Of a stretch of 64,000 bases of DNA, positions 20,854 through 46,965 are shown in pieces (within the stretch, counting starts at the first letter, position 1; the number at the start of each line of letters is the position of its first letter). A program made the position numbers and the translations under genes. The notes below the pieces were generated by a model. The model searched no databases. It was not told where the DNA came from and was given only the letters and a program-made list of their open reading frames with translations. Source of the DNA: Gammaproteobacteria bacterium (GTDB lineage Bacteria; Pseudomonadota; Gammaproteobacteria; DSM-16500). Where the stretch lies: contig JANRLY010000040.1 of NCBI GenBank assembly GCA_033762075.1, positions 17,372 through 81,371 of the forward strand. The letters run 5' to 3'.

Positions 20854-20855
20854 TT

Positions 20856-29489: not shown

Positions 29490-29548
29490 ATGCTTATTGC
29501 ATCGCTGTATTTGAATAGACAATAAATAGCATCAAGCTTAACTTTTTA

Positions 29549-30340
29549 TTAAAAATTAACTGTTACTGTCCCAAGTAAATGATTTCCCCTAAGTGCTGGG
29601 TCATCCACTGACCTACCGTTTGTTCCAGTCCACTGAAGTGCCAAATTATAAATGCCGATGGTTTTGTTTATTTGTAGACTGTAATCGTTATAACTTCTCA
29701 AATCCGCGCTTCGTGGCAAGCTAAAATGACCTATGCTTCCTTTAACATTTACATCATTAAAATTAAAAATATATTTAGGAGGAATGCCGTAATTGAAGCC
29801 AATATTGTAATATGTTCCGCTTTTGTCAGTATTAAAAACATTGTTAGAGTAATCTAATTCCGCTGTCAAAAAATAATAGCTCCATTTAGTAAGTAGCTCA
29901 TTATAGTTCACTCCTGATGCCTTCGGATAATTATATCGTGCGATGCTAATATCGTAACCAAAGTGTTCTCCAATTTTATTTGCAATCCCTCCAACAGTAT
30001 CTATTTCAACAGTAGCAGTTCCATCTTCAGCATCTGGAAAGTTAACATTTGAACCCCACATATTGAGATAGATTCCTGTTGTCAAAAATGTGTAGGTTAG
30101 CCCACCTTGAAATGCTGGTAAATTGTTAGATAAACTTACTCCACGCCATACATAATTACTAGTTATATCAAAATTTCCGCTTATTGGTGATTCTGCTTCG
30201 TCAGTGGATGTAGTTGAGGCTAAATTATTTGGTTTTTCCTGTGTTAATTTTTCAGCTGTTTTCTTATTAGGGTATACATCTGCTTGTGCTATGGGGCATA
30301 ATGATAGCGATAAGAGTAAAATGACAATAAATTTTTTCAT
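29549..30340 (-). CDS. Outer-membrane beta-barrel protein (TorF / TIGR02001-type putative porin)
   Basis: It has the signal peptide MKKFIVILLLSLSLCPIAQA, the motif YVWRGVSLSNNLPAFQGGLTYTF...GIYLNMWGSNVNF, and a C-terminal aromatic residue. Confidence 0.6.
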   Translation of the reverse strand: MKKFIVILLLSLSLCPIAQADVYPNKKTAEKLTQEKPNNLASTTSTDEAESPISGNFDITSNYVWRGVSLSNNLPAFQGGLTYTFLTTGIYLNMWGSNVNFPDAEDGTATVEIDTVGGIANKIGEHFGYDISIARYNYPKASGVNYNELLTKWSYYFLTAELDYSNNVFNTDKSGTYYNIGFNYGIPPKYIFNFNDVNVKGSIGHFSLPRSADLRSYNDYSLQINKTIGIYNLALQWTGTNGRSVDDPALRGNHLLGTVTVNF

Positions 30341-30494
30341 TAAGCAGAACTCCATGAAATATAAGTTTTCCTTTAAGTTTCTTGAAACAATATAACCTCT
30401 TACGGTGCAAAAATACTAGGGAAAATTAAATTTTTATTATATGATAAGTGATGATTTGCTTCTATTGGGATGTTTTTTAATAAGGATGGTTAAT

Positions 30495-30803
30495 ATGAAA
30501 AAGTTTAAAGGTTATTTTTTTGTGCCATTATTGGGCTTTTTGGCGGGAGGTTGCGCTGAAGTTAGTCAAAACTTAGGCCAAAATATCGCTATGATATCAG
30601 AAGCGCCAAAAAATAATTGTACTTCACTAGGTGAGCTTTCTTCTAGTGTAGGATCTGGGCCATATCAACTCAAAGAACTTAAAAACAGGGCTGCGCAAAA
30701 AGGCGCCAATACTATTTTGGTTAAATCACAAAAATTACATTTCCGTAAGCAGATTAGTAGTATGGAAACAACTACCATTATAGAAGCTTATCGTTGTCCA
30801 TAG
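30495..30803 (+). CDS. DUF4156-like lipoprotein (paralogue 1)
   Basis: It has the lipobox LAGGC and the conserved motifs C-x-x-LGE, KGANTILV and EAYRC, shared with the ORFs at 34063 and 34475. Confidence 0.55.
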   Translation: MKKFKGYFFVPLLGFLAGGCAEVSQNLGQNIAMISEAPKNNCTSLGELSSSVGSGPYQLKELKNRAAQKGANTILVKSQKLHFRKQISSMETTTIIEAYRCP

Positions 30804-32947
30804 ATTAGACTTTTTAGGGTGGGTGAATTAAAACGCAACAATCTTAATCCATTAAAAACCACTAATAAACTTGCACCCATATCAGCAAATACTGCCATCC
30901 AGAGTGTTGCAAATCCAAATAGGGCTAAAACAAAAAATATTGCTTTAATTCCTATAGATAAACTTATATTTTCAACCAGCTTACGCCAGGTACGACGACT
31001 CAGTGCAATGAAAAAAGGTAGCTTGGTAAGATTATCTTCCATCAAAGCCACATCTGCAGTTTCAAGTGCAACATCTGTTCCTGCATGACCCATTGCAAAA
31101 CCAATGGATGCTTTTGCAAGTGCAGGAGCATCGTTAATTCCATCACCCACCATACCTACTGCATCATATTTTTTTAAGAGTATATCCATTGCAGCTAATT
31201 TATCTTGAGGTAATAAATTAGCTTGCACATCATCAATACCGACCATTTTCGCAATTGCTTTAGCCGTAGTTGGATTGTCTCCCGTTATCATGGCCGTTGT
31301 AATGCCAAGCTTATGAAGCCAGTTAACGGCTTCTGCACTTGTTTCTCGCAATGTATCAGTTACGCCCAATATGCCTAATACTTTTTCTTGATTGCCCAAT
31401 ACAATGGTTGTTTTACCTTCTTGTTCTAATTGTTTTAAAGTTGATTCTATTTTAGCGTTACAAACGTTTTTTTCTTCAGCAAAACGATGGTTACCTAAAA
31501 AATAGAGGTAACCATCAATATTGCCTATAATTCCTCGACCTGGAATAGTTTCAAATTTCTCTACCCGCAATAAATTTTCTTTTGCTGATAAATTTTTCCA
31601 TTTATTTAAAATTGCTTCTGCTACTGGATGTTCTGAATGGGACTCAAGGCTAGCGGTAAGGTGTAATAAAGTATTTTCTGAAATATCTGATATTTTCACA
31701 ATGTCTGTAACTATGGGTTTACCAATAGTTAATGTCCCTGTTTTATCGAAGGCAATAGCTTTAATTTTATGACCCAATTCTAAATAAGTTCCGCCTTTAA
31801 TTAAAACACCATGCTTGGCACCAGCTGCTAGACCGCTAACAATTGTAACCGGCGTTGAAATAACTAAGGCACATGGGCAAGCAATAACAAGAAGCACTAA
31901 AGCTTTATAGAACCATGGGTAAAATGGAGCACTGAATAAAAGTGACGGCATGGTAGCTACCAATATGGCTAATATAACCATAATCGGGGTATAGTATTTA
32001 GCAAATTGATCAACAAATCGTTGTGTAGGTGCTCGTTCAGACTGGGCTTGTTGTACTGCTTTTATGATTTTTGAGATAAGTGTTTCATTGATTTCTGCAG
32101 TTACTTTAAATTCAAATGACCCACGCTCGTTAATTGATCCTGCAAACACAGAATCACCTTCCGTTTTTTCTACAGGGATAGATTCGCCTGTAATTGGGGC
32201 TTGATTGACGCTGGACTGCCCTTTGGTAACAATACCATCTATAGGGATTCGCTCACCTGGTTTTACCCATATCACATTATTTAGTTGAATTTCATTAACT
32301 GCTTTAACTTGCCAAGCTCCTTCTGATGTTTTTACTGTTGCAACATCAGGAGTAATTTCCATTAATTGGCGAATTGCATGACGCGCCTTATCTAAAGAAT
32401 AACTTTCGATCATTTCAGCTAGGGCAAAAAGAAAGGTTACCATTGCTGCTTCTGGCCATTCACCAATAATCATTGCACCAATGATGGCTATCGTCATTAA
32501 AAAATTCATATTGAGAGTAAAATAGCGTACCGCTTTAATTCCCTTAATGACGGTACTCCGACCACCTATTAAAATTGAGGATAAAGCTAACATAATAATT
32601 AAAGGTGAATTTTCAGCATGAGTGATATAAGCAAATACTTCTGCAACAATGGCCAGTACGCCGGAAATACCCAAAATGATCCAATCTCGGTAATTCACGT
32701 TCGATTGCAGTAACTCCAGGCTTTTGGCGGTATAAGCTCCATTTTTGATTTCAGCCTTCATTCCTATAGAAGTAAGCGCCTTCTGAATAGCAGCTATTTC
32801 TACATCTTGATAGGTAACTTTCAATTCTTGTTGGATAAGATTGAAGTCTAACTCTAAAATTCCTGGCAAAGAATTTAGGTGATTTTTAATCATTTTTTCT
32901 TCTGTTGGGCAATCCATTTGCGGGATATGGAAAATAACGGTAGCCAT
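30788..32947 (-). CDS. P1B-type heavy-metal ATPase (Zn/Cd/Pb-type, CadA/ZntA-like)
   Basis: It has an N-terminal metal-binding domain with DCPTEE, the CPC motif in the TM6 region (ACPCALVISTP), DKTGTLT and VGDGINDAPAL. Confidence 0.9.
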   Translation of the reverse strand: MATVIFHIPQMDCPTEEKMIKNHLNSLPGILELDFNLIQQELKVTYQDVEIAAIQKALTSIGMKAEIKNGAYTAKSLELLQSNVNYRDWIILGISGVLAIVAEVFAYITHAENSPLIIMLALSSILIGGRSTVIKGIKAVRYFTLNMNFLMTIAIIGAMIIGEWPEAAMVTFLFALAEMIESYSLDKARHAIRQLMEITPDVATVKTSEGAWQVKAVNEIQLNNVIWVKPGERIPIDGIVTKGQSSVNQAPITGESIPVEKTEGDSVFAGSINERGSFEFKVTAEINETLISKIIKAVQQAQSERAPTQRFVDQFAKYYTPIMVILAILVATMPSLLFSAPFYPWFYKALVLLVIACPCALVISTPVTIVSGLAAGAKHGVLIKGGTYLELGHKIKAIAFDKTGTLTIGKPIVTDIVKISDISENTLLHLTASLESHSEHPVAEAILNKWKNLSAKENLLRVEKFETIPGRGIIGNIDGYLYFLGNHRFAEEKNVCNAKIESTLKQLEQEGKTTIVLGNQEKVLGILGVTDTLRETSAEAVNWLHKLGITTAMITGDNPTTAKAIAKMVGIDDVQANLLPQDKLAAMDILLKKYDAVGMVGDGINDAPALAKASIGFAMGHAGTDVALETADVALMEDNLTKLPFFIALSRRTWRKLVENISLSIGIKAIFFVLALFGFATLWMAVFADMGASLLVVFNGLRLLRFNSPTLKSLIYGQR

Positions 32948-33127
32948 AATTATTACTCTCAAAGTTAGTTATCAATCAATGCCTTAGATTCATGCTATCA
33001 TCATAAGCATAGCATTGATTTCTCGATAGATGGAGCCGCAAATATAACATCTAAATCAATCAAATGCTTAGAAAGAGGTCAAAAAATGTCTTACAGCAAG
33101 CAGCCTGTTTAGATAGGGGATTTAATA

Positions 33128-34036
33128 ATGAGTGTTGAGCATAATCATTCAAACTTAAAGGCTAGCAAGGAACGCCCTCTGTTATTTGCTTTAATACTAA
33201 CATCCACTTTTTTGGTTGCAGAAGTGGTGGGTGGTCTTGTTACCGGAAGTCTTGCATTAATTTCCGATGCTGCGCACATGTTAACTGATGTTACTGCGTT
33301 AGGCATTGCTCTTGTTGCTATAAAGATTGCACGTCGACCAGCAGATGTCATTAGAACATTTGGTTATTATCGATTTGAAATTTTGGCTGCAGCATTTAAT
33401 ACAATACTCTTATTTGTGGTGGCAATTTATATTTTATATGAAGCCTACCAAAGACTAAGTCATCCACCTGAAATATCTTCCATAGGCATGTTAGTTATCG
33501 CTTCTATTGGGTTGGTGGTCAACCTAGTGTCAATGAAATTGTTAACTGCTGGTAAAGATAAAAGTCTTAACATGAAAAGTGCCTATCTCGAAGTATGGAG
33601 TGATATGTTAGGATCAATGGGTGTGATTATTGGTGCTTTAATCATTCGCTTTACAGGATGGGCGTGGGTTGATTCGCTTATCGCAGTGCTGATTGGTTTA
33701 TGGGTTTTGCCTCGTACTTGGACTTTACTTAAAGAGAGTATTAACGTACTACTGGAAGGTGTGCCAGAGGGTATTGATTTAAAAAAACTGAAGGAATCAG
33801 CTTACCAAGTTGAAGGTGTGTTAGATATTCATGAGCTACATGTTTGGGCAATTACCAGTGATAGAATCAGTCTAACAGCTCATATAGTAATTGAACAAAA
33901 ATATGATTGTGAAAGCGTTTTATTTAACCTTAAAAAGCTTTTAGCATCACAATTCGGTATTTCGCATACGACCCTACAGCATGAGCGAAAAAAATGTTTT
34001 GAGGGAGACGAGGTTTGTAATTTCGTTTCTCCCTAA
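33128..34036 (+). CDS. czcD: CDF family divalent-cation efflux protein (CzcD/ZitB-like), full length
   Basis: It contains SDAAHMLTDV, six TM segments, LLKESINVLLEGVP and a cytoplasmic domain HELHVW...H. Confidence 0.85.
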   Translation: MSVEHNHSNLKASKERPLLFALILTSTFLVAEVVGGLVTGSLALISDAAHMLTDVTALGIALVAIKIARRPADVIRTFGYYRFEILAAAFNTILLFVVAIYILYEAYQRLSHPPEISSIGMLVIASIGLVVNLVSMKLLTAGKDKSLNMKSAYLEVWSDMLGSMGVIIGALIIRFTGWAWVDSLIAVLIGLWVLPRTWTLLKESINVLLEGVPEGIDLKKLKESAYQVEGVLDIHELHVWAITSDRISLTAHIVIEQKYDCESVLFNLKKLLASQFGISHTTLQHERKKCFEGDEVCNFVSP

Positions 34037-34062
34037 TTTAACTTAATATTTTTGCCTATTTG

Positions 34063-34452
34063 TTACCTGGTGCTCGGGCAATAATATGCCATACCAACCA
34101 TGCTGTGTGTATTTACTTTAATATCTTTATTTCCAATTTTTCCCATTTGGAACGACTTTTTTTCTTGAGATGAAACATGATTTGTTAAAACAACCACATT
34201 TGCACCAAGAGCCAAGGATTTATTTTTTAATAATGTGATATTCATGTCATGTAAAGTGGCGGCAGAGTCAAAAGATTCCTTAGCGACATCATTCGTATTT
34301 ATTTCACCAAGATTTTTGCAACGTTTATTTGGAGCGCCTAAAATTTTTATTTTTTCTGAGCCAGGTGTAGGGGAGACTGTAGTTGCACAACCTACAATAA
34401 AGTGACAACAGAGCACAATAGCACTGGTTTTTAAGCCTATCCATTCTTTCAT
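34063..34452 (-). CDS. DUF4156-like lipoprotein (paralogue 2)
   Basis: It has the lipobox IVGC and the motifs CKNLGEI, LGANVVVL and MAYYC. It is the last gene of the czc string. Confidence 0.5.
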   Translation of the reverse strand: MKEWIGLKTSAIVLCCHFIVGCATTVSPTPGSEKIKILGAPNKRCKNLGEINTNDVAKESFDSAATLHDMNITLLKNKSLALGANVVVLTNHVSSQEKKSFQMGKIGNKDIKVNTHSMVGMAYYCPSTR

Positions 34453-34474
34453 AATTGATCTCCTATGTGAATAT

Positions 34475-34906
34475 TTAGTAAGAATAATGTGTGCCAATTG
34501 TATTACGTTGTAACTGCCATCTAATATCAGATGAACAAGAATAAGCTCCGCCTTTTATATCGTGAGAGCTTTCAGTATAATAATGCTTCTTAGGAGTAGC
34601 TGATGTATGTGGAGTGTCTATTACCTGATGTTGGCAAAAGGTAACTACATTAGCGCCTAGTTTTCTTCCTGCATTTCTAAGGAAGTTAATGTCATCTTTC
34701 TCTAGGTTGTCTTTTGATGAAAAATAAGTGCTTTCGCCATGAATATTATTCCCATTTATCTGTCCTAGGTATTTACACTCTTTTACCGTCTCATTATCTG
34801 GAACAACATAAACACCCTCTGCGTTAGGGTCAAGTATGCGTGGAACGCAGCCACTTATAATTAAAACACCAAAACAAGCAGCAAAATAGAAGCATAACTT
34901 ATTCAT
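34475..34906 (-). CDS. DUF4156-like lipoprotein (paralogue 3)
   Basis: It has the lipobox ISGC and the motifs CKYLGQI, LGANVVTF and GAYSC. It starts 2 nt after the czcA stop. Confidence 0.5.
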   Translation of the reverse strand: MNKLCFYFAACFGVLIISGCVPRILDPNAEGVYVVPDNETVKECKYLGQINGNNIHGESTYFSSKDNLEKDDINFLRNAGRKLGANVVTFCQHQVIDTPHTSATPKKHYYTESSHDIKGGAYSCSSDIRWQLQRNTIGTHYSY

Positions 34907-34907
34907 A

Positions 34908-37900
34908 TCATTTTCCTTTAAATTGAAATTTCTTCCAGTTGATGCGGGATTTAAGAGTAATGAGATGTCCTTTTAACCAGCGTAAAACGAGCCATAATTG
35001 CACTTTAATATGAGTGTTCCTATAATCACCATTCCCATTATGCCCGTTCCTAAAAAAATGAGCATACAGAACCGGCAACACCAATAAGGTAAGTGCTGTT
35101 GAAGAAATTAAGCCACCGACAACTACAGTGGCCAGAGGACGTTGTATTTCAGCGCCAATACCTCGTGCTAGTAACATAGGAATCAGCCCAAGTGCGGTAA
35201 TAAAAGCGGTCATTAAAACAGGGCGAAGTCTTGAAACTGCGCCAATAAAGACAGCTTCATCTATTTGCATGCCTTCTTGTTTGTTTTGATTAATGGCGTT
35301 AACTAATACAACACCATTTAAAACGGCAATACCAAAAAGTGCAATAAATCCAATTGAGCCAGGAACGGAAAGATACTGCCCAGAAATGAACAGCGCTATA
35401 ATGCCTCCTATTAGCGCAAGTGGTACATTGATCATGACTAGAAGGGCTTGGCTTGCAGAAGAAAAAGCAAAATATAAAAGTAAGAAGATAAGGGCAAGAG
35501 AAATAGGAACAACAATCATTAATCTAGCTTGGGCGCGCTGTTGATTTTTAAATTGTCCACCATAGGTCACGGAATAGCCAGTTGGCAATTTAATTTGCTT
35601 GTCAATTTTTTGCTGAATTTCTGATACAACACTACCCATATCACGGCCTTCAACGTTGGCTTGAATGACTACGCGTCGTTGTACAACATCACGACGAATT
35701 TGCGGAGGAGCTGATTCAAGTTTTACCGTCGCTATATCATTCAGGCGAACCCACGCACCTTTAGGAGAGAGTAGGATAAGATTGCCAATTGCTTCCATAC
35801 TATCCCGATAAGACTTGCCTAAACGAACATAAATATCATATCGCTCATTACCATTAATGACTTGGCCCGCCACTTTCCCACCAATGGCATCTGTAATTAA
35901 TGACATAACTTGGCCTATTGAAATGCCATAGCGCATTAGAGCCTCTCTGTTTGGCTTAATCACAAGCTGTGCTTCGCCTGTAATCTGCTCCATCGCAACA
36001 TCACGTGTCCCTTTGACAGCCTTGACTGTCTCTTCAATCTCTCGGCCTTTTTCAGCAAGAATAGATAAATCGGGGCCAAATAATTTTATTGCTAACTGGG
36101 CGCGAACACCGGAAAGCAATTCATCGACACGACTAGCGATCGGTTGAGAGAAAGCAAAAAGAAGTCCTGGATAAATTGACATTTTCTTTTCCATAAGAGC
36201 TTGCAATTCCGGACGATTATTTGCAGAAGTCCATTGCTTTATAGGCTTTAAACCAACGTAAAGCTCAATATTAGAAACAGGTTCAGGATCACCACCTAGC
36301 TCAGGTCTACCTATGCGGCTTGAAACATAAGAAACCTCAGGAAAAGTCATGACTTCTTGCTCTAATTTGTTAGCAACATTAAGAGCAGTTTCTAAACTAG
36401 CTGAAGGCGCGAGCGTAGCGCGAACGTTGATTGTTCCCTCTTCAAGTTCGGGAACAAATTCTGTTCCTAAAAATGGTAAAAGCAAAAGAGATATAAGAAA
36501 TAAACTAACTACACCAATAATAATAGGTTTGGGGCGCGCTAATGATTTTTTAAGTATTTCTTTGTAATGATGCATAATAGGTCGTAAGACAGGACTTTCA
36601 CGATGCCTAATCCCTGATTTAAAGAGATAGGTAGATAATGCAGGAACAACAATCATAGCAACCACAAGAGAAGCAAACATCGATAAAACAATACTGATTG
36701 CCATTGGATGGAATAACTTTCCTTCAACACCCTGCAGACTAAATAAAGGTGTAAACACCACCATAATAATTAGTACAGCATAAAAAACCGGTCTTGCTAC
36801 TTCACGGGCTGCCTCTTGAATACGAATAGGAATAGCATGATTGCTTTCAACAATGGCATCATCAAGATCTTCATCAAGGTTGTTTTGTTCTACATAAGAA
36901 TGATTAGAACCAGGTTGACTTAAATGTTTAAAAATATTTTCCATCATCACAACCGATCCATCTACCATCATTCCGATTGCAATAGCTAAACCACCAAGAG
37001 ACATTAGATTTGCAGAAAGTCCCCAATAGGCCATTGCCATTAGTGCAAGTCCTACTGAAATCGGAACAGATATAAGTACCAGTAAGGTAGCGCGCAAATT
37101 CATAAGAAAAAGAAGTAATACAACAAAAATTAAAACAAATGCTTCTATTAATGCTTTCACAACAGTATGAACAGCCTGTTGAATCAAATCAGCTTGGTCA
37201 TAGACTGGTTCCAGTTGTACACCTTGGGGTAATGCTTTCTGGATAAGAGGTAAGGCTTCTTTAATTCCATCAATCGTCGCTTTTGTATTTGCACCAATAC
37301 GTTTTAGTACAACGCCTGCTACCACTTCACCTAAAGAGTTTGGCTTCCCTTCAACATTGCGTTCAGTCATTGTGACTGCGCCTTGGCGGATTTCACTTCC
37401 ATAAGCTACCTGTGCCACATTACGAACCCGCACAACTATGCCATCTTTATCTTTTATAGAAATATTAGCGATATCTTTTAATCCATCGTCTCCACTGCGT
37501 ACCCACCCAAATCCACGAATAGTTAATTGTTCAGACCCGCGATCCAAATACCATCCACCGGCATTACGGTTATTCGCTTCAATAGCGTTAACTAAATCTT
37601 CAATATTGAGGCGATAAGCAAGCAATCTTGCAGGATCAACTTGTACCTGATATTGACGAACTCGCCCGCCATAAGAGAGAACATCAGTTACGCCATCAAC
37701 GGGTGCTAATAAAAGTTTAACAACCCAATCGTTTAATCCTCGTAAAGCCATTGCATCATATTTTTTAGGGTTGTCAGTACGTAAAATGTATTGAAATACT
37801 TGACCAAGTCCGGATGTATTTGGGCCCATTTCAGGCACACCAACGCCAGGTGGAATTTTTTCGCGTGCAGCTTGTAGACGTTCAAATACTTGTTGACGAG

Positions 37901-38216: not shown

Positions 38217-38234
38217 AATTGTCCTTAACTCCTA

Positions 38235-39359
38235 TTAGTGTCCGTGAGAATCAAACCCTTGTTTATTTAATTCCGCATGGACAAAGAAAGCACCTTTTGT
38301 AACCACTCGTGTTCCTGGCGCAAGACCTTCTATAATGACTTGGTTATCAATTACTTCTCCCATTTTCACTTCAACTTGCTGAAATTTTCCGGGTTGTTTT
38401 TCGATATAAACTGCCCAATCGCCATCAGCAGTCCGTAGAACTGCATCTACGGGGAGTGCCAATATTGGTTTTGTTTGTCCTGATTCAATTTGGCAATTAA
38501 CATATTGTCCAGGGTGTAGAAGGTCATCTAAATTTGGAACTTCCAAACGTATTGAGCGTGTGCGCGTTGCTTCATCCAATTGATGGTGCACTTGAATAAC
38601 ACTTCCGGTAAGAGTACGCCCATTTACTATCATACGTGCAGCATCACCAACCTTGATCGGACGTACAAGGTCGGATGGTAACTTTGCATCTACCCACACA
38701 GTTGATTCTTCAACAACTTGTAGAAGTACACGTCCCGTCTCAACCAACTCACCCTCTGTAAAATTAATATTAAAAATGGTGCCATCACGAGGAGCAAGTA
38801 ATTTAAATGTACCTTTGGCATTTGATGGTTTCTGAGTAGTTACTATTGAATTAATTTCTGCTTCTGTCATTCCGTAAGCTAAGGCGGTGGAGTATGCATG
38901 TTGGTAGGCAACTTGAGCTTCTGAATAGCGTTTTGCTGATATAGCATCTTTACCTAAGCTTTTAACACGCTCCCATTCTTGTCCTGCTAGTAGCAAATCG
39001 CCTTGGGTTTTAGCCATATCAACACTTGATAAATCAACCAATGGTTGGCCCGTTTTTACATGTTGTCCTTCTTGTACGTACCGTTGTATGACTTGAGCAG
39101 GAACACGTGTTGTTACTTTTGTTGTAAGATTGGCGTTTGGGATAACTTCACCAGGCGCAGGAATTAAATAGGCCAATACACGCGGTTGCAAAATTGTAAC
39201 TTGGATATCAGCTATTTTGAGTGCAGCGGGATCAAGTACAATAACGTTTTTTTCTGTGGAGGAGGTTTCTTTGCTAGTACTAGCATAGCTGTTAGAAATA
39301 GAAAACGTTAATCCTGTCACAATAATCATTAGAAGATATTTGCCTTTTATTTTTCCCAT
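38235..39359 (-). CDS. czcB: RND periplasmic adaptor (CzcB-like)
   Basis: It has membrane-fusion-protein architecture, lies between czcC and czcA, and has a signal or TM start MGKIKGKYLLMIIV. The ORF track offers an alternative start at 39446. Confidence 0.8.
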   Translation of the reverse strand: MGKIKGKYLLMIIVTGLTFSISNSYASTSKETSSTEKNVIVLDPAALKIADIQVTILQPRVLAYLIPAPGEVIPNANLTTKVTTRVPAQVIQRYVQEGQHVKTGQPLVDLSSVDMAKTQGDLLLAGQEWERVKSLGKDAISAKRYSEAQVAYQHAYSTALAYGMTEAEINSIVTTQKPSNAKGTFKLLAPRDGTIFNINFTEGELVETGRVLLQVVEESTVWVDAKLPSDLVRPIKVGDAARMIVNGRTLTGSVIQVHHQLDEATRTRSIRLEVPNLDDLLHPGQYVNCQIESGQTKPILALPVDAVLRTADGDWAVYIEKQPGKFQQVEVKMGEVIDNQVIIEGLAPGTRVVTKGAFFVHAELNKQGFDSHGH

Positions 39360-40600
39360 GATTGTTCTCCTGATGATAATGGTTTTAATTGCAGCCAACT
39401 GTCCACTTGGCCTGATGCTCTTAGCCATTCTGCCCAAGCTTGCCATGCACGGCCTTTTAATTCGACGCCCGCAATTTGACTATCGATACGTTGTTTTAAC
39501 TGGACTATATAGTCGGTTGAGTTTATCTCTCCTGCTTGCCACAAACGCTCAATTAATGTCATGCCATCGCCTAATGGTTTCCCAGCAGCTTGTTGCCACT
39601 GCTGTGTAGCACGGTAAAGTGTTTGGTACCGTTCGGCGCTGCTTCTAATTTCAGCTCTAGCTTGGCGTACAATATCAGCGCGTTTTCCGTCTGCTTCCAT
39701 GGCGTCGTAGTTAGCGGCGTCTACTTCTGCTCTATAGGGATTACGCACAAATAATGGAATACTGAGTGTGACACCTACTAATCGTTTCTTCTCGCCTTCA
39801 CTTGACGATTGCCCACCTTGAATTCCAATAGTTGGGTCAGGGTAACGTTCACGTTCTGCTGCCCTTATGCGTGCTCGTGCAGTTTGGTATTGTTGATTGA
39901 GTACTAAAACAGCAGGTAATTTACTCATCAAACTATCAACATCGATATCGTGTGCTGCTAATAAAGGTAAAGGAGAAGCTAAACGTGGCCAGTTCATCTG
40001 AGTAAAGCCAGTTGTTGCCCTGAGTGTCTGTAATGCTTGGTTTACACTGACCTCAGTATCAGCTTGTTGAGCTAGTGCTTCGGAAAGTGCTAATTGCGCC
40101 AAGTCCAAATCAACTCGCGCAATATCGCCACTTTTGTATCGCTTTTTTGTAAGATCGACAAATTTCTGTAATAAAGAAGTACGTTCTTTTGCTAGGGTAG
40201 CAGCCTGTTGCTCTGCTTGATATTTTGCTAAGGCACCCAAAACTTGTACGGCAAGTTGTTGCCTTAAATCGGCCAATTGTGCTTTTGCTACGCGTGCATT
40301 TGCCATGCCTACTTGTTCACGAGCGCCACGCTTGTTAGCCCAATCAATCGTTTGATCAATTTCAACATATGATTGGTTTTCTAGTGCATTTTGTTGTTGT
40401 GCACTCAATGAAGGATTATAGATAGGATAACCTGATGCACGCTCACGTGCTTTAGCAGCAGCCACATTTGATTCGGCAGCTTGGATAGCCGGATTGTTCT
40501 CTATTACTTGTTGGAGAAACAAGCTAAGCGATGAGTCTGCATAAGCAGGCAAGGCTAAGCAACAAATAAATAATGTAGCTATTTGAATGATACGTTTCAT
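39347..40600 (-). CDS. czcC: TolC-family outer-membrane factor (CzcC-like)
   Basis: The 417-aa product has a signal peptide and the two-repeat coiled pattern typical of OMF proteins. It is the first gene of the czcCBA unit. Confidence 0.8.
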   Translation of the reverse strand: MKRIIQIATLFICCLALPAYADSSLSLFLQQVIENNPAIQAAESNVAAAKARERASGYPIYNPSLSAQQQNALENQSYVEIDQTIDWANKRGAREQVGMANARVAKAQLADLRQQLAVQVLGALAKYQAEQQAATLAKERTSLLQKFVDLTKKRYKSGDIARVDLDLAQLALSEALAQQADTEVSVNQALQTLRATTGFTQMNWPRLASPLPLLAAHDIDVDSLMSKLPAVLVLNQQYQTARARIRAAERERYPDPTIGIQGGQSSSEGEKKRLVGVTLSIPLFVRNPYRAEVDAANYDAMEADGKRADIVRQARAEIRSSAERYQTLYRATQQWQQAAGKPLGDGMTLIERLWQAGEINSTDYIVQLKQRIDSQIAGVELKGRAWQAWAEWLRASGQVDSWLQLKPLSSGEQSWEK

Positions 40601-40629
40601 TTTTTCAATATATCCTTATCTGCATCCAT

Positions 40630-43600
40630 TTAATTAGGAAGCTTATATTGCTTCCATAGCAAGTAAACCGCAGGAATAACAATTAATGTTAAAAGCGTTG
40701 CACTTATCATTCCACCAACCATAGGGGCTGCAATACGGCGCATTACTTCAGAACCTGTCCCACCTAAAAACATTATTGGTAATAAGCCACCAATAATAGC
40801 TGAGACTGTCATCATAATAGGTCGTACCCGCAACAAAGCTCCATTGACAATGGCTTCACGAATATCTTTTTTCGTCAAAGAGCGTTTTTCTTGTGTCGCA
40901 ATTTGTTGCTGTTTTTCCATTGCATGATTGAGATACACTAACATCACTACACCTATCTCAACGGCTACACCTGCGAGGGCTATGAAGCCGACCCCTACCG
41001 CAACAGATAAATGATACCCTAGCAAATATAAAAGCCAGATACCACCCACTAGAGCAAACGGCAGGGTAGTAAGAATAATAATAACTTCGGAAAATCGTCG
41101 AAAATTTAAGAATAATAACAAAACGATAATGGCGAGTGTGAATGGTGCAACTACGCCTAATCGTTCTTTTGCACGCTCCAGGTATTCATATTGCCCTGAC
41201 CATGCAATGGAATAACCCGCTGGTAATTTGATTTGCTGATTAACAGTCTGTTGTGCTTCTTTGACATAAGAACCCAAGTCACGGCCAGTAATGTCGACAT
41301 AAACCCAACCATTTAGTCGCGCATTTTCGCTGCGAATCATGTCTGGCCCTTCAGTAATTTCTACACTAGCAATTTCACTAAGTGGGATAACAGCACCGGA
41401 CATGGTAACAATTGGTAGCAGGCGTAATTTTTCTAATGAGTCTCTAATTTCACGAGGGTAACGTAAATTTACCGGATAACGTTCACGTCCTTCTACGGTT
41501 TGGGTGACGTTCATACCACCGACTGCTGTTTCAATAATTTCTTGAATGTCTTCAATATTCAATCCATATCGTGCTGCTTTTAAGCGATTAATATCAACGG
41601 TGACATATCGGCTACTAGCAACACGTTCAGCAAATACTGAAGTTGTGCCTGGAACTTGCTTTAATACCGTTTCAATTTGTTGGCCAAGGGATTGAAGTAC
41701 ATTTAAATCGGTGCCAGCAATTTTTATACCAACAGGTGTTTTAATTCCAGTCGCTAACATATCTATTCGAGTGCGAATAGGCATGACCCATGCATTAGAT
41801 AATCCAGGTAGTTTGACGAGAGATTCTAGTTCAGCGCGAAGTTTTGTCATATTCATGCCAGAACGCCATTTGCTCTTTGGTTTAAATTGAATAGTGGTTT
41901 CAACCATTGAAAGCGGTGCAGGGTCAGTCGCACTTTCTGCTCGTCCAATTTTCCCAAATACACTTTTTACTTCAGGAACTGTACTAATTAGTTTATCGGT
42001 TTGTTGCAAAACTTGCTGGGCTTTACCAATTGAAATGCCTGGAAAAGTGGTAGGCATATATAGTAAATCGCCTTCATCTAATTCTGGCATAAACTCACCG
42101 CCTAATCGTGAGATAGGCCAGAAACCAATAAGCACAACGATCAAAGTGATGATCAGTACCTTTCCTGGTGTTTTTAAGATGGCATTAATGGCTGGCTTAT
42201 AAGTTTTTAATAATAATCGGTTCAAAGGGTTTTCTTGTTCCGGTCTAATTTTTCCTCGAATAAGATAACCCATCAAAACAGGAACTAGAGTGATGGAAAG
42301 AATTGCCGCTGCCGCCATTGCATACGTTTTAGTGTAGGCCAAAGGTGAAAACAGACGACCTTCTTGTGCTTGTAAAGAGAAAATAGGTAAAAAACTAAAT
42401 GTAATTATTAGCAGTGAAAAAAATAAAGGTGGCCCGACTTCCAGTGAAGCTTGTTTTATGATCTCCCAATGATCTTGACCCTCATGATTTTGTTCTAAAT
42501 GTTTATGCACGTTCTCGATCATGACGATTGCAGCATCCACCATCGCACCAATCGCAATTGCAATGCCACCCAGTGACATGATATTGGCATTAATTCCTTG
42601 GAGGTGCATGACTATCAAGGCCATCAAAATACCAATGGGTAAACTAATAATAATGACGAGCGAAGAGCGGAGATGGAAAAGAAATGCAATACAAATTAAT
42701 GAAACCAGTATGAATTCTTCCACTAATTTATCTTTCAATGTATCGATCGCACTTTTTATCAAAGTAGAGCGATCATAAGTTGTAATGATCTCTACACCTT
42801 TAGGTAAGCTAGGCTGTAATTGTTTTAATTTTTCTTTTACCGCAGCAATAGTTTGCATGGCGTTTTGGCCATATCGCATCACAATAATGCCACCAACTAC
42901 TTCGCCCTGACCATTTAATTCAGTTATGCCTCGACGCATTTGTGGGCCTAACTGCACATCAGAGACATCTTTTAGTAAAATAGGAATGCCATTTTTTCCT
43001 AATCCAATGGGTATTTGTTCGATATCTTGAATCGATTTTATGTAGCCTTTAGCGCGTACCATGTATTCTGCTTCACCCATTTCAATAGCAGAACCACCCG
43101 CTTCACGATTTCCTCTTTGAATTGCCAATTTCACTTGATCTAATGTTAATCCATAAGCGCGTAATCTGTTTGGGTCTAAGGTGATTTGGTATTGCTTAAC
43201 CATCCCACCTGCTGTTGCGACTTCAGCCACGCCTGGTACTTTTTGTAATTCATATTTGAGAAACCAATTCTGTAAACTAGTAAGCTGTGCAAGATCATGT
43301 TGTCCTGTTTTATCTATCAAGGCATATTCATAAACCCAACCTACGCCGGTTGCATCTGGGCCTAACGCTGTTTGTGCACCAGGTGGTAATCGATTTGCAA
43401 TTTGACTTAAGTATTCTAATACACGTGAGCGTGCCCAATAGAGGTCAGTTCCATCTTTAAAAATAATGTAGACATAGGACACACCAAAACCTGATTCTCC
43501 ACGCACAGTCACTGCACCAGGCACAGCTAACATCGCTGTGGTAAGTGGATAAGTCACTTGATCTTCGACTACTTGAGGTGCTTGACCAGGATAATCCGTT

Positions 43601-43749
43601 TTAATAATCACTTGTACATCAGATAAATCAGGAATAGCATCAACTGCAGTATTTTTTATCGTGTAAAAACTCCATAAAACAAGCAATACAGTTGCCAGAA
43701 GAATCAGAAATCGATTCTGTATCGACCAACGAATAATGCTTGTAACCAT
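40630..43749 (-). CDS. cusA: Cu(I)/Ag(I) efflux RND pump CusA
   Basis: The N-terminus IIRWSIQNRFLILLA...VDAIPDLSDVQVIIKTDYPGQAPQVVEDQVTYPLTTAML...YWARSRVLEYL is nearly collinear with E. coli CusA as I recall it. Confidence 0.9.
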   Translation of the reverse strand: MVTSIIRWSIQNRFLILLATVLLVLWSFYTIKNTAVDAIPDLSDVQVIIKTDYPGQAPQVVEDQVTYPLTTAMLAVPGAVTVRGESGFGVSYVYIIFKDGTDLYWARSRVLEYLSQIANRLPPGAQTALGPDATGVGWVYEYALIDKTGQHDLAQLTSLQNWFLKYELQKVPGVAEVATAGGMVKQYQITLDPNRLRAYGLTLDQVKLAIQRGNREAGGSAIEMGEAEYMVRAKGYIKSIQDIEQIPIGLGKNGIPILLKDVSDVQLGPQMRRGITELNGQGEVVGGIIVMRYGQNAMQTIAAVKEKLKQLQPSLPKGVEIITTYDRSTLIKSAIDTLKDKLVEEFILVSLICIAFLFHLRSSLVIIISLPIGILMALIVMHLQGINANIMSLGGIAIAIGAMVDAAIVMIENVHKHLEQNHEGQDHWEIIKQASLEVGPPLFFSLLIITFSFLPIFSLQAQEGRLFSPLAYTKTYAMAAAAILSITLVPVLMGYLIRGKIRPEQENPLNRLLLKTYKPAINAILKTPGKVLIITLIVVLIGFWPISRLGGEFMPELDEGDLLYMPTTFPGISIGKAQQVLQQTDKLISTVPEVKSVFGKIGRAESATDPAPLSMVETTIQFKPKSKWRSGMNMTKLRAELESLVKLPGLSNAWVMPIRTRIDMLATGIKTPVGIKIAGTDLNVLQSLGQQIETVLKQVPGTTSVFAERVASSRYVTVDINRLKAARYGLNIEDIQEIIETAVGGMNVTQTVEGRERYPVNLRYPREIRDSLEKLRLLPIVTMSGAVIPLSEIASVEITEGPDMIRSENARLNGWVYVDITGRDLGSYVKEAQQTVNQQIKLPAGYSIAWSGQYEYLERAKERLGVVAPFTLAIIVLLLFLNFRRFSEVIIILTTLPFALVGGIWLLYLLGYHLSVAVGVGFIALAGVAVEIGVVMLVYLNHAMEKQQQIATQEKRSLTKKDIREAIVNGALLRVRPIMMTVSAIIGGLLPIMFLGGTGSEVMRRIAAPMVGGMISATLLTLIVIPAVYLLWKQYKLPN

Positions 43750-43763
43750 GGTTTTCCCTCTGT

Positions 43764-45227
43764 TTAAGGAGCTAATTTTTTCATATCTGTAATAACATAT
43801 TTATTGTCTTTGGCTTTCTTAAGCGTAAATTTAACGTGATCACCTATTTTAAATTGGTTTAGATTGACTTCTTTTTCAACCGAGAAATCCATTGTCATTT
43901 CCGGCCAACTCAATACAGGAATGGGTTCATGCTGTAATGTTAAGGAGTCTTGAGAAACATTCAGAGCTGTAATGATTCCCTTTCCTTCTATAACGATGTT
44001 TGACCATGCAACCGTAGAAGTTTCGGAATTTTTAGGTTGAGAAGGTGTTTCTACTCTCTCTAATCCAGCTTTTAAATTGGCTTCCGAGTCAATGAGGAAT
44101 TGCCCAGAGGCAACAACACGTTCACCGGCCTGTAATCCAGAAAGAATTTCCACTTGATCACCCGATTCCATGCCGGTGGTGACAGGGCGTACCTGAAAAC
44201 GATTGCCTAATGAAACAATGACACGATCTCCCTGTGAGCTTCGGATGAGCGCTTCAAGAGGAATACTTAGTACATTTGATTTTGCTTCCGCAAACAAGGA
44301 AATATTTGCATACATATTAGGTTTTAAAATGTTATCAGGATTGTTGAACCGAATTCTTACTTTTAGAGTGCGGGTGGTAGGATCAACTTGCGGATATATA
44401 TATTCTACTTCACCTTTCCATATTTTATCTGGAAATGCAGATAATTTTGCTTCTGCAAGCTCGCCAATCTTCACCCAGTTAGCTTGGTCTTCAAAAACTT
44501 GAACGATCATCCAAATGCTGGATAAATCAACTAAGCTTATCATTTCTAGTTCAGGCGTAATTTTCATGCCTTCTCGTACATTTAATGCGGTTACTACACC
44601 GTCTTGCGGTGATTCAATATCAATTAGCTGACTTGATTTTTTTGTATTTTTTAATTGCTGGATTTGTTTTTCAGAAATATGAAGAGCTTGTAGTTTTTTA
44701 ATAGATGCATTAGCTAAATCTTGATCTCTGCTACCTAATGCAATCAAGTATTCTTCTTGAGCGTTAATCAATATTGGCGAATATAATTGTAGCAGTACTT
44801 GGCCTGCTTTGACAGGTGCACCTACAGTATTTACAAAAAGTTTTTTTACCCACCCATCCGCATAAGAATGGATATGGCTAATTTTATTTTCATTGGGTTC
44901 AACGTAACCAACAGCCTCAATGCGTCTTGCAAGTGTTCCTTGCATAACGGGTGCAGTGCGAACGCCAAGGTTATTGATGACGGTCGGTGAAATACGAACA
45001 CCTGATTGATCGCCTTCTTGTCCTTCAGGGTAAACAGGAACAAGTTCCATACCCATGCGCGATTTTCCAGGCCCAGAATAATGAACCGTTGGCTCCATAG
45101 TGTCGACCCAATATAAGGGTTTTTTTTCATCAGATGTTGAATGCCCAGAATATCGCCCAATTACAATACCCATAATGAGGACGAGCACAAGCACACCGAT
45201 AATGACAAGTATTGGGCCTTTTTTCAT
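43764..45227 (-). CDS. cusB: CusB-like periplasmic adaptor with an N-terminal heavy-metal-binding motif and a fused C-terminal CusF-like domain
   Basis: The N-terminal motif is KKPLYWVDTMEPTVHYSGPGKSRMGMELVPVY and the core is a membrane-fusion protein. The last ~80 aa (LTLQHEPIPVLSWPEMTMDFSV...GDHVKFTL) match the CusF metal-site motif H..I....WPEMTM. Confidence 0.8.
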   Translation of the reverse strand: MKKGPILVIIGVLVLVLIMGIVIGRYSGHSTSDEKKPLYWVDTMEPTVHYSGPGKSRMGMELVPVYPEGQEGDQSGVRISPTVINNLGVRTAPVMQGTLARRIEAVGYVEPNENKISHIHSYADGWVKKLFVNTVGAPVKAGQVLLQLYSPILINAQEEYLIALGSRDQDLANASIKKLQALHISEKQIQQLKNTKKSSQLIDIESPQDGVVTALNVREGMKITPELEMISLVDLSSIWMIVQVFEDQANWVKIGELAEAKLSAFPDKIWKGEVEYIYPQVDPTTRTLKVRIRFNNPDNILKPNMYANISLFAEAKSNVLSIPLEALIRSSQGDRVIVSLGNRFQVRPVTTGMESGDQVEILSGLQAGERVVASGQFLIDSEANLKAGLERVETPSQPKNSETSTVAWSNIVIEGKGIITALNVSQDSLTLQHEPIPVLSWPEMTMDFSVEKEVNLNQFKIGDHVKFTLKKAKDNKYVITDMKKLAP

Positions 45228-45231
45228 TTAC

Positions 45232-45498
45232 CTACTCCTTAGCGGGCGGTACTTTACCGTCTTTGTTATCAGTTTTTTTCTGTGGCTCAGAATAAACAGG
45301 GACTAAGTCCATGCCCATGCGTGATTTTCCAGGTGCTGAGTAATGAACATCAGGTTCCATTGTATCCACCCAATACAAAGGTTTCTTTTCCGTGCTCGTA
45401 GTTTGTTGATTGGTCGTTGAAGTATTTCCTTTCGAATATCCAATCAACGGAGTAGCAAGTACAGTTAATAATAAGATAACTAATAATTTCTTCTTCAT
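45232..45498 (-). CDS. Small secreted protein consisting of a stand-alone copy of the CusB N-terminal metal-binding motif
   Basis: The 88-aa product has a signal peptide. Its segment EKKPLYWVDTMEPDVHYSAPGKSRMGMDLVPVY is 29/33 identical to CusB residues 34-66. It occupies the cusF position between cusC and cusB. Confidence 0.65.
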   Translation of the reverse strand: MKKKLLVILLLTVLATPLIGYSKGNTSTTNQQTTSTEKKPLYWVDTMEPDVHYSAPGKSRMGMDLVPVYSEPQKKTDNKDGKVPPAKE

Positions 45499-46775
45499 TG
45501 TGTTACTCCTTCTAAGTAAAGTAGGGCTGCTCGTGCTTTAGCGTGTTCAACTTCGATCTGAATTTGCTCCAGACGAACTGTTAAATTATTGCTATAAGCC
45601 CGTAGCACGGTGGAAAAATCTGTCGTTGAATTTTTATAAGCGAGCAATGCAGCTTTAGAATTTTGAGTTGCTTCTGGGCGTAAATGTTGACGATATACAC
45701 TTTCGCGTTTAGATAGGCTTTGCCAGATAGCATATTGGGCAGTTAATTCCTTTAATAAGTCTTTGTAATGAACATCTCGATCAAACATGGTCGCTTCTAA
45801 TTGATGTGCACTTGCACTTAATCGTTTATCTTGGCGGTTGCCTGTGAAGAAGGGTAAATCAACGGTTACTTGCGCGCCGACAAAATTAGAACGTGTCTTG
45901 CCGGAACCATCCATATAAGTGCCTTGCCGTATGCCATAACCCACATCAACTGTCCAACCAGGTTTATATTGCTCTTTCGCAAAAGCTACTTCATCATAAG
46001 CCGCTTCAATATTTGCTGTATCAACTTTTAACATAGGATGCTGCATTAATCGAGATTGTAAAATGTCGAATGGCGGTGGGTTTGACCAGTGAGGTAATGA
46101 ATTAACTAAAGGACGATTTGCTTCATCAGCACCAATCCAGCGACCTAACTGTGCTTGCAATACATCTATCCTTTGTTCAGCTTGAACACTTTGGTCATTG
46201 AGCCGTGAAAGCTCGAGACGTAATTGTAATACATCGGATTGACTACTTCTGCCAGCGCTATATTCTGATTCGTTTGTTTTTAGTAACTGCTTATATAAGG
46301 AGCGGTTTTCCCTGAGAATGGTGGCTGCTTGATTCCAATAATAAAGGTCAAGCCATGTCTCCCTTACATTTCGTAACAACATAGCAGCCTGTTCTTGAAT
46401 CTTTTGTTGTTCAGCTTTGGCTAAGGCGCTTGTTTTTTTGGATTTCATGGCAAGAGAATGACCTGGCGCAAACGTTTGCTGTAGACCAACTTGTACCATT
46501 GTCATATCATCTTGAGTGAAGCTATATGAATTTGTGGGGACATTAGCGGCTCCAGCTATTAACTGCGGATCAGCCCATTGCCCATCAGCAACAGCTTGTT
46601 CTCTTAGGGAATCAGCATTAGCTTGGAGTTGTTTCAATTCTGGCGCACTGGCAATTGCTATATGCTCAGCTTCTGATAGGTTTAGTTGTTGTCTAGATGA
46701 GATAGCAAAACTAGTAGACGAAGAGGCGAGGATGGCTAATAGTATAATCCTCTGTAAAGCATTCGCCCTCGTCAT
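45495..46775 (-). CDS. cusC: TolC-family outer-membrane factor (CusC-like)
   Basis: The 426-aa product has a signal peptide and OMF repeat architecture. It is the first gene of the cus unit. Confidence 0.8.
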   Translation of the reverse strand: MTRANALQRIILLAILASSSTSFAISSRQQLNLSEAEHIAIASAPELKQLQANADSLREQAVADGQWADPQLIAGAANVPTNSYSFTQDDMTMVQVGLQQTFAPGHSLAMKSKKTSALAKAEQQKIQEQAAMLLRNVRETWLDLYYWNQAATILRENRSLYKQLLKTNESEYSAGRSSQSDVLQLRLELSRLNDQSVQAEQRIDVLQAQLGRWIGADEANRPLVNSLPHWSNPPPFDILQSRLMQHPMLKVDTANIEAAYDEVAFAKEQYKPGWTVDVGYGIRQGTYMDGSGKTRSNFVGAQVTVDLPFFTGNRQDKRLSASAHQLEATMFDRDVHYKDLLKELTAQYAIWQSLSKRESVYRQHLRPEATQNSKAALLAYKNSTTDFSTVLRAYSNNLTVRLEQIQIEVEHAKARAALLYLEGVTQ

Positions 46776-46926
46776 TCTTGAGTACCTCCCTGTTCAATGA
46801 ATAGTCCATGAAAGCCTAAATCGCAAGTCGGCCACGATATAGTTTATAACATTCCTATTGAAACAAAGAACTAAATTATCATCAAGTTAAGAAAAAAAAC
46901 CTCTATTGCTTAAATTAAGTTCAATC

Positions 46927-46950: not shown

Positions 46951-46965
46951 AACGACAATCTTAGC

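Follow-up and report, generated by a model that had tools for sequence, protein, structure and literature searches.

A putative fusion of a lambdoid prophage and a metal-efflux island at the 3′ end of ssrA in a gammaproteobacterial metagenome-assembled genome

Introduction

When a long run of metal-efflux genes lies inside the attachment (att) boundaries of a prophage, does it belong to the phage, or is it an island that merely shares the integration site? The question is raised by a 64,000-nucleotide stretch (hereafter the window) of a 114-kb contig, JANRLY010000040.1, of one metagenome-assembled genome (MAG), the genes of which have their nearest relatives in Coxiellaceae and Legionella. Proteins MDX1901861–MDX1901908 (locus tags SFW66_) belong to this MAG. 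In the window, the genes of a prophage are followed by a block of metal-efflux genes (hereafter the metal block) and then by an att site in ssrA, the tmRNA gene. An earlier interpretation of the same DNA, made without database searches (the sequence-only reading), had proposed that the metal block is either phage cargo or an integrase-less island of separate origin that was mobilised or stranded by the phage. Our analysis puts the chance at slightly better than even (roughly 55%) that region 118–47102 is one composite integrative element at the ssrA 3′ end, in which a phage and an ssrA metal island have been fused into one excisable unit.

Recombination sites at the ends of the element

The two ends are marked by an exact 33-nt direct repeat, the copies of which are 46,952 bp apart and for which no chance match is expected: the attR core lies within the intact 3′ end of ssrA, and the attL core is its displaced copy (Table 1). 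No third copy was found in the window with up to 3 mismatches permitted, and the best interior match to the core (20 of 33 positions) is at the level of shuffled sequence. A 15-nt exact match (GGTGGAGGCGGCGG, 25857–25874) in the glycine-rich part of the tail host-specificity gene was judged to be due to chance.

The motif AAGGGCGAA is present at 205, 216 and 46928, with a degenerate fourth copy (cGGGCGAAt) at 46939, and occurs nowhere else in the 64 kb. The copies form two tandem pairs of like orientation with a spacing of 11 bp, one located 55 nt inward of the attL core and the other 122 nt inward of the attR core, and look like the arm-type sites of lambda-type integrases. The element thus has the components of lambda-Int-type recombination, that is to say, core repeats at both ends, predicted arm sites in both arms and a PF12167 domain in the integrase; the arm pairs together with this domain indicate that the outer ends are the only recombination-competent boundaries. 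Region 118–47102 contains one integrase gene (int), one excisionase-like gene (xis) and two att cores. Because int and xis are single, the cores are two, the arm pairs are found only at the ends and internal relics are absent, excision by Int and Xis is predicted necessarily to free the whole 46.95-kb circle, and the phage and the metal block must, on this arrangement of sites, now move only as one unit. In the predicted circle, attP would be flanked by metal genes on both sides, with a Cus-like operon on one side and a short cation diffusion facilitator (CDF) gene on the other.

The last tail gene and the first gene of the metal block converge, and no att core or arm site was found between phage and block near 29.5 kb. 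A simple tandem array of a separate island and phage was rejected on this absence of internal core and arm sites. In this respect the sequence-only reading holds well: its att boundaries are confirmed and refined to the exact 33-nt core at the ssrA 3′ end, its matching arm motifs at the outer ends correspond to the four copies given above, and the structural premise of its cargo hypothesis, a block inside the sole att pair with a single int and a single xis, is what we find. Its statement that the block brings no mobility genes and no extra att copy also withstood the searches for ORFs, for inverted repeats or tnpA, and for core relics.

Outside attL, the layout of the chromosomal side (1–117) resembles that of the X arm (the att arm at the ssrA end), with GGGGGCT at 11–17 and 24–30, a hairpin at ~61–92 and GGATGTTTTTGGATGTCTTTGG adjacent to the core. 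The alignment to the X arm is weak, and this stretch may be a relic X-type arm of an older ssrA element left of the window.

Related contigs support both outer parts of the element

Other contigs independently support the outer parts of the element: L086 the integrase side, and L095 and L096 the link between arm and operon. In L085 and L086, whose integrases are 96% and 85% identical to that of the window, the order int, xis, exonuclease, repressor-position gene and cro is the same as in the window, and the DNA is 75–86% identical (86% in L085 across window positions 917–4125). The arm of L085 is 95% identical to that of the window, and L086 has the att core and a related arm pair (GTGGGCGAGACGTGGGCGAAT) at a similar distance from it. 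L086 also carries a short CDF gene between int and the arm pair, which assigns both int and the short CDF gene to the lineage of the phage. In L087 (integrase 77% identical), an acetyltransferase gene takes the place of the CDF gene, so to judge from these contigs the gap between int and att is a variable cargo slot. The short CDF, which the sequence-only reading had correctly recorded beside int, converges on int with a 4-nt overlap. We judge that it is not a truncation, because homologues of 195–200 aa exist in relatives, namely in the metal clusters of L098, L016, L018 and L020.

L085 lacks the short CDF and carries, at 3235–3466, an arm pair, a degenerate core (TGGAGGCGGCGGGGATTGAACCCTC), 8 bp, a window-type arm pair and the true core. 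This double att unit beside int indicates that tandem att relics occur at this locus. A scan of IMG/VR with the arm-pair pattern gave only chance matches, in coding DNA or iterons (L088–L090), and two of four metagenome matches (L093 and L094) were discarded as high-GC chance matches.

On the other side of the element, the DNA of the Cus-like system 2 is 83% identical to L095 and L096 and 80% identical to L097. In L095 and L096, the homology (83%) spans the RND gene, the promoter of the outer membrane factor (OMF) gene, one arm site and the hairpin (window 40647–46984). It ends exactly at the terminator hairpin (46984), where the inverted repeat of a 4.6-kb Tn3-family element starts. That element (L095 638–5205) encodes a tyrosine recombinase and a 1007-aa transposase between inverted repeats of ~88 bp, and its other side is bordered by the 3′ fragment of an integrase gene that is unrelated. 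L097 has the ssrA core at its very start, and the same operon (80% identity) follows ~300 bp on; its arm region (70–248), between a conserved core-proximal stretch and the operon, contains 3–4 copies of a different repeated motif (ATGTGCCCA), which looks like a cassette-like swap of arm specificity. In L091 and L092, from related hosts, the X arm of the window stands beside ssrA and is followed by an insertion sequence in one and by XRE/LuxR-type genes in the other. Between the window and L092, the identity is 91.8% over the 159-bp non-coding X arm, compared with 78.1% over the adjacent ssrA; such conservation beyond that of ssrA would be expected of a horizontally moving, protein-bound att arm.

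Since the operon stands beside the core or arm in L095–L097, the pairing of a Cus-like operon with an att arm at ssrA predates the element in the window and recurs. The sequence-only reading had named the occurrence of the block at ssrA without any phage as the finding that would speak against a phage-bound block, and this is encountered in part: the Cus-like operon is located at the core or arm in L095–L097 with no phage genes visible, on contigs that are too short to establish phage absence.

Table 1. Features of the composite element and its att sites (window coordinates)
Feature	Position	Strand	Basis and remarks
Chromosomal side of attL	1–117		Old ssrA terminator hairpin ~61–92; GGGGGCT pair 11–30; GGATGTTTTTGGATGTCTTTGG by core
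attL core	118–150		Displaced copy of last 30 nt of ssrA plus 3 nt; exact 33-nt repeat of 47070–47102
Y-arm pair of candidate arm-type sites	205–225	+	AAGGGCGAAT twice, 11 bp apart; 55 nt from core
Short CDF, 197 aa, membrane domain only	308–901	+	PF01545, TIGR01297; slot between int and att for accessory genes (morons)
Tyrosine integrase, N-terminal arm-binding domain	898–2106	minus	PF12167 (83.8 bits), PF00589
Excisionase-like gene, 67 aa	2058–2261	minus	Open reading frame (ORF); same-position genes in L085 and L086 carry PF06806/DUF1233
Early and lysis region	2258–9429		PHROGs, Pfam; exonuclease and 215-aa repressor-position gene (minus); Cro-like, O-like, HNH, Q-like, endolysin (plus)
ParB-like nuclease/DNA methyltransferase fusion	9528–10760	+	phrog_498, E-value 1e-158
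Packaging and head module	11169–18283	+	PHROGs; TerS, TerL, portal (532 aa), S49 protease/scaffold (437 aa), 185-aa structural protein, Mu gpT-like capsid
Connector and tail module	18410–29489	+	PHROGs; head closure, neck, tail terminator, tube, tape measure, distal tail, host-specificity, last tail gene
Tail host-specificity protein, gene transfer agent (GTA) type	25519–28791	+
Last tail gene	28788–29489	+	Homologues after tail protein in L001–L003
Tail–porin junction	29490–29548		59 bp between convergent tail and porin genes; no att or arm relic
Gcw_chp/TorF porin	29549–30355	minus	Pfam/NCBIfam
DUF4156 lipoprotein a	30441–30803	+	Pfam/NCBIfam
P1B heavy-metal ATPase, ZntA/CadA-like	30788–32962	minus	TIGR01525 (611 bits); HMA PF00403
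Full-length CDF, ZitB-like	33128–34036	+	Pfam/NCBIfam
DUF4156 lipoproteins b and c	34063–34497, 34475–34906	minus	Pfam/NCBIfam
Czc-like heavy-metal efflux RND (HME-RND) system 1	34908–40600	minus	OMF 39347–40600, membrane fusion protein (MFP) 38235–39446, RND 34908–38216
Cus-like HME-RND system 2	40630–46775	minus	OMF 45495–46775, HMBD protein 45232–45498, CusB–CusF fusion 43764–45227, RND 40630–43749
X arm of att	46886–47069		Arm-type pair 46928–46948; ssrA terminator hairpin 46975–47000 (minus), element-supplied; core-adjacent GGTCTTT repeats
attR core	47070–47102		Within intact ssrA 3′ end
ssrA (tmRNA), full length	47073–47481	minus	ARAGORN; Rfam RF00023, 194 bits, model positions 1–374 of 374

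Gene content of the phage part

Region 151–29489 carries a full gene set for regulation, replication, lysis, packaging, head and tail, in which no gene looks broken, and is apparently an intact lambdoid temperate siphovirus; holin and CI were assigned by position only. The repressor-position gene is divergent from the Cro-like repressor gene, and the integrase is 60–65% identical to many Legionella integrases. In the head module, the portal is lambda-type, the 185-aa virion structural protein occupies the position of a decoration protein, and the relatives of the module carry Phage_portal_2, Peptidase_S49 and Mu-like_gpT. The Pfam matches of the tail module are Phage-tail_3 and Rcc01698_C. The label DUF2793, which the sequence-only reading had given to the last tail gene, must be withdrawn; the gene has no match in Pfam or NCBIfam.

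A megablast comparison of the phage part with 50,697 phage records returned no match, and scans of IMG/VR with the tail protein, the integrase and the RND protein of system 2 as single proteins returned no relatives. The nearest structural modules are found on three metagenome contigs (L001–L003), with tail proteins 45–50% identical and DNA 65–70% identical; these contigs stop short of their att sites. Two of them contain genes for Ras/Arf/Roc GTPase, TPR and ankyrin proteins within the tail module (L002 7515–8645; L003 5560–7140 and 8794–9894). Such eukaryote-like genes are a hallmark of Legionellales, and here they look like effector-type morons of Legionellales phages. L003 also has a CutA1 gene (13280–13600) directly after the tail host-specificity gene.

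Head capacity and the possibility of a stranded element

The terminase belongs to the GpA family, and its closest cultured relatives are those of VP882 and phiHAP-1 (genomes of 37.9–39.2 kb), which we take to be cos phages. The closest cultured capsid relatives have genomes of 40.6 and 41.4 kb. Capsid relatives in IMG/VR (54–66% identical), taken from contigs of at least 35 kb with completeness unchecked, are on contigs of 36.0, 40.2, 40.5, 42.3, 42.4, 42.6, 43.5, 44.5, 45.0, 46.4, 57.3 and 63.1 kb, with the sizes clustering at 40–46 kb. Lambda tolerates up to ~105% of its genome length. For a head of this type, a genome of 29 kb would clearly be short, and to that extent the head-size argument of the sequence-only reading stands; its placing of 47 kb in the usual range does not, since that length lies at the upper limit of the sizes given above or slightly beyond it. 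From these sizes, packaging of 47 kb appears plausible.

The same sizes bear on the strongest competing explanation, to which we give distinctly lower odds than to a fused element that still functions as a phage. According to this explanation, the fusion is real, and a unit of 47 kb does not suit the capsid, by its size or for another reason, such that the phage is effectively defective or excises unproductively; the metal block would be an integrase-less ssrA island that borrows the phage int and xis or never moves. The lengths of the cultured relatives (40.6 and 41.4 kb by capsid, 37.9–39.2 kb by terminase), the Cus-like operon at ssrA in contigs without visible phage genes, and the singleton tail genes, which give no sign that this exact phage circulates, are what would be expected of such a stranded composite. 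By contrast, the phage genes all look intact and include no pseudogenes, IMG/VR relatives reach 45–46 kb, and, if the fusion arose through aberrant excision and re-integration from a virion, the unit would have been packaged at least once. We therefore find a stranded composite possible and rather less probable than the functional fused element.

The metal-efflux block

The metal block comprises 13 ORFs with nearly no spacer over 17.2 kb (29549–46775), as classified with Pfam and NCBIfam. The two RND pumps score 1063 and 1288 bits on TIGR00914 (CusA/CzcA; cut-off 701 bits), and MFP genes (HlyD_D23; in system 2 CusB-like and fused to a CusF domain) and OEP genes adjoin both RND genes, which makes each system tripartite. 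For the P1B ATPase (TIGR01525 cut-off 346 bits), the best equivalog-type resemblance is to ZntA, yet the score is under the ZntA cut-off; the protein is 93.6% identical to the copy in L005. The sequence-only reading had counted 13 metal-export genes, and both the number of ORFs and their families are verified, with the reservation that the metal role of the porin and DUF4156 genes is one of association only. The porin and DUF4156 lipoprotein a have no homologue in the relatives' clusters that were compared, and an exact look-up of the porin, as delimited here, returned no entry.

DUF4156 genes are found in nearly every Legionellales HME-RND/ATPase cluster examined, including L007, L019, L095, L098 and L184. 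This recurrence points to a part in metal handling that has gone unrecognised.

No integrase or transposase ORF was found in the block, and Rfam found no riboswitch or other RNA in it. Neither Tn3 inverted repeats at the block ends, nor a match in the window to the L095 inverted repeat or to its tnpA or recombinase, nor a target duplication in the window was found. A transposon cargo with intact ends was rejected, given that flanking inverted repeats, tnpA and relics are absent. A phage satellite of the P4 or phage-inducible chromosomal island (PICI) type was also rejected: the block lacks an int gene and a repressor gene as well as genes for replication or for packaging interference, and the phage part is structurally full.

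Origin of the block

A scan with the RND protein of system 1, which sampled one genome per species, gave its first matches in Coxiellaceae, Berkiella and Legionella MAGs. In L010, L019 and L050 the gene order is OMF2-MFP2-RND2-OMF1-MFP1-RND1-CDF, in some cases followed by the ATPase, and L098 has the whole gene set, including the short CDF and DUF4156 genes, in one chromosomal cluster. In these four and in L007, the same genes stand mostly in the same order on contigs of 74–253 kb without phage genes; within 10 kb of the metal loci of L010, L019, L050 and L098, neither phage genes nor tmRNA were found. The closest relative, L005, is 93% identical in protein and 86–90% identical in DNA over the ATPase and the RND operon of system 1 (86% over window 34900–40709), and its block adjoins a Tn3-family transposase, HicAB, MmeI fragments and KfrA. 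The cultured Legionella fallonii LLAP-10 carries the same gene set on plasmid II between two Tn3-family transposases, and L095 also carries a module of the block beside a Tn3-family transposase.

The occurrence of one gene set in chromosomes, plasmids and Tn3 contexts implies that the block is a pre-assembled Legionellales metal cluster, which on these comparisons normally moves on plasmids and transposons. An origin of the block separate from the phage is thus well supported by the comparison of gene clusters. The separate origin suggested by the sequence-only reading is upheld in this way, through a pre-assembled cluster of Coxiellaceae and Legionella, and not through the GC figures which it had offered: its spot counts, which had set the block apart from the core genome as well as from the phage, were wrong, the GC content being 43.5% in the phage, 39.1% in the block and 39.0% in the host flank. 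The tetranucleotide pattern of the block is nearer to that of the phage (r = 0.83) than to that of the 16.5-kb host flank (r = 0.60), whereas its GC content is that of the host. This result is given little weight because membrane-protein genes and the short reference bias it, and the composition evidence on the origin of the block is ambiguous.

A separate origin could also have been followed by a classical acquisition of morons, in which the X arm is the phage's own, the block entered the accessory region from a plasmid or chromosome by Tn3-family transposition or illegitimate recombination, and the relatives with arm and Cus-like operon are descendants or fragments of such phages. The Tn3-family transposases beside block modules in L005, L095 and the L. 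fallonii plasmid would suit this course of events, as would the post-tail position, which is the usual cargo slot, as in phi3LM21 and L001. We nevertheless regard it as improbable: the window contains no inverted repeat, target duplication or transposase relic, and the operon beside the ssrA core with another arm motif in L097 better fits a long-term ssrA-resident island. Least credible of all is an assembly artefact, in which the MAG contig would misjoin a prophage and a metal island of different cells or strains at ~29.5 kb, as the metagenomic source and the lack of the junction in every other contig compared might suggest, since the junction contains no repeat through which an assembler could have joined the two, a strain mixture would branch at the core or arms and not between a tail gene and a porin gene, and the two ends match each other both as an att pair and in their arm motifs.

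Proposed formation of the fused element

The fused phage–island element would have the metal block in the usual accessory region between the tail genes and att, and the short CDF in the slot between int and att. Its formation may be pictured in three steps: (i) a Coxiellaceae-type metal island of the same att/arm family would have been resident at ssrA; (ii) a phage of the same att family would have integrated beside it, giving a tandem array; and (iii) a single illegitimate event would have fused the island, at its far end, to the end of the tail operon, either by an aberrant excision of the lambda-gal kind, which left a functional hybrid attP (X arm of the island, core, Y arm of the phage), or by deletion of the internal att. 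Either route would lead to the observed order, the clean junction, the loss of the normal accessory region and the metal genes on both sides of attP in the circle.

In the lysogen, the block would be transcribed independently because it converges on the late operon. The Cus-like system, with its CusF fusion and HMBD protein, would export Cu/Ag; the Czc-like RND system, the ZntA-like ATPase and the ZitB-like CDF would export Zn/Cd/Co; and the outcome would be lysogenic conversion to metal tolerance. After induction, the GpA-type (cos) terminase would package the cos-to-cos unit, that is, all 47 kb, if the head can hold it. The full sequence of events, in which a phage from a lineage of intracellular bacteria (Coxiellaceae/Legionellales) captured a same-att-family ssrA island by aberrant excision from a tandem array and now packages and transduces a multi-metal determinant within a 47-kb genome, is a tentative proposal, clearly less secure than the fused state of the element.

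Several points weigh against a functional fused element: (i) the tail–porin junction is seen only in this MAG contig and in no relative compared; (ii) the genomes of the cultured relatives are 38–41 kb, so 47 kb may exceed the head capacity; (iii) the relatives in which the Cus-like operon stands at ssrA may simply be islands; (iv) in clusters at 90% identity, the tail host-specificity protein and the product of the last tail gene are the sole members; (v) the GC content of the block differs from that of the phage (39.1% versus 43.5%); (vi) the block has no metal-responsive regulator gene; and (vii) excision, expression and packaging are inferred from the sequence. Relatives at 90% identity or more, on contigs of 12–36 kb, exist for the OMF of system 2 (HLB43211.1 on a contig of 35.8 kb, P0371 on 27.1 kb and P0372 on 11.8 kb), the integrase (P0362 on 22.2 kb, P0363 on 22.9 kb and P0364 on 15 kb) and the capsid protein (P0378 on 20.5 kb); P0363 has the same integrase C terminus as the window, so its contig probably carries the short CDF. 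That the packaging of 47 kb is plausible and no more is the main reason why our confidence stays near one half. If the proposal is true, it would provide a route by which phages move large efflux operons and a general mechanism of "island capture" at crowded tRNA/tmRNA sites.

Host flank

To the right of ssrA lies ordinary chromosome, with smpB, a ratA-like gene, fur and genes for a GGDEF protein, AddAB-like helicase-nucleases, a two-component system and CheB/CheR. In the related metagenome contigs L091 and L092, too, ssrA is bordered by homologues of smpB, ratA and fur. A 513-aa ORF without a Pfam match (47553–49094, minus) stands between ssrA and smpB; in L091 and L092 smpB abuts ssrA, and the ORF looks like a local insertion. 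The GC content falls to 30% at 62001–63000, inside a large CheB/CheR/PAS fusion gene (61080–63653).

The two-component system, an OmpR-type response regulator and a histidine kinase (58407–60544, minus), is located 11 kb from attR, and weak homologues of it adjoin an HME-RND cluster in L068. Because the block encodes no regulator, it may be controlled in trans by this host system.

Comparison with known systems

Lambdoid prophages carry morons between the tail-fibre genes and att, as in the lambda b region and lysogenic-conversion loci. The element shares with them an int gene beside att, the order early, late, tail, accessory and att, a lambda-Int-type integrase with arm sites, and cargo that is predicted to be transcribed independently of the late operon. 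Sinorhizobium phage phi3LM21, a cultured relative, for example, has int by the att site and ~7 kb of accessory genes after the tail fibres. Unlike these small accessory genes, the cargo in the window measures ~18 kb, or 38% of the element, and includes two tripartite RND pumps, an ATPase and CDFs. Specialised transducing phages such as lambda gal and lambda bio arise from aberrant excision. As in these phages, foreign DNA beside att replaces the accessory region in the window, with one clean illegitimate junction on the phage side; the differences would be that the captured DNA is an island of the same att family, that a hybrid attP with arms on both sides results, and that no essential phage gene is lost.

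Tandem accretion at one att site is known from integrative and conjugative elements (ICEs) and cis-mobilizable elements (CIMEs) in streptococci, and from tandem islands at tRNA/tmRNA genes. Similarly, several elements of the same specificity compete for ssrA here, L085 has tandem att relics, and an integrase-less partner needs the int of its neighbour. By contrast, the element in the window has no internal att left, and its parts are therefore inseparable. The case illustrates how a hot spot such as ssrA, at which phages and islands share one integrase/arm family, can combine two elements in a single one.

In the general view, phages seldom carry resistance determinants, and those that they carry are mostly small genes. 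A profile-derived motif scan found HME-RND pumps in 4 of 2.9 million IMG/VR contigs. In L182 the pump is outside the tRNA/int boundary and is host flank, and L183 is a 2-kb fragment with an HME-RND gene. L181 has cusBA beside int within a 59-kb contig (4325–13174), and at the end of contig L180 (2024–12889) an RND gene follows a J-like tail gene at a distance of 3 kb. At most two of the four look like real cargo. A complete prophage with 18 kb of Cu/Ag and Zn/Cd efflux genes inside its only recombination-competent boundaries would give a concrete and testable instance in which large efflux operons are transferred with a phage, in a host order in which intact prophages are said to be almost unknown.

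For Legionella, ICEs that occupy tmRNA in L. pneumophila have been described, as have integrase-bearing helABC metal islands (PMC2859405), and intact prophages have been reported to be absent from L. pneumophila genomes in a 2025 paper (PMC12407071). The window shares with the Legionella metal clusters (L. fallonii LLAP-10 plasmid II, helABC islands, tmRNA ICEs) the CDF, TolC, MFP, RND, DUF4156 and P-type ATPase genes, to which DUF2231 and MCO (multicopper oxidase) genes are added in relatives, together with the integrase family (60–65% identity) and the use of ssrA for integration. Unlike the plasmids, ICEs and transposons that are the vehicles in Legionella, the vehicle in the window is an apparently complete tailed prophage. 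The mechanism, composed of Int/att integration, post-tail cargo and accretion at a hot spot, is a known one; what is unusual is a cargo of this size and kind, and a phage and an island in a welded state.

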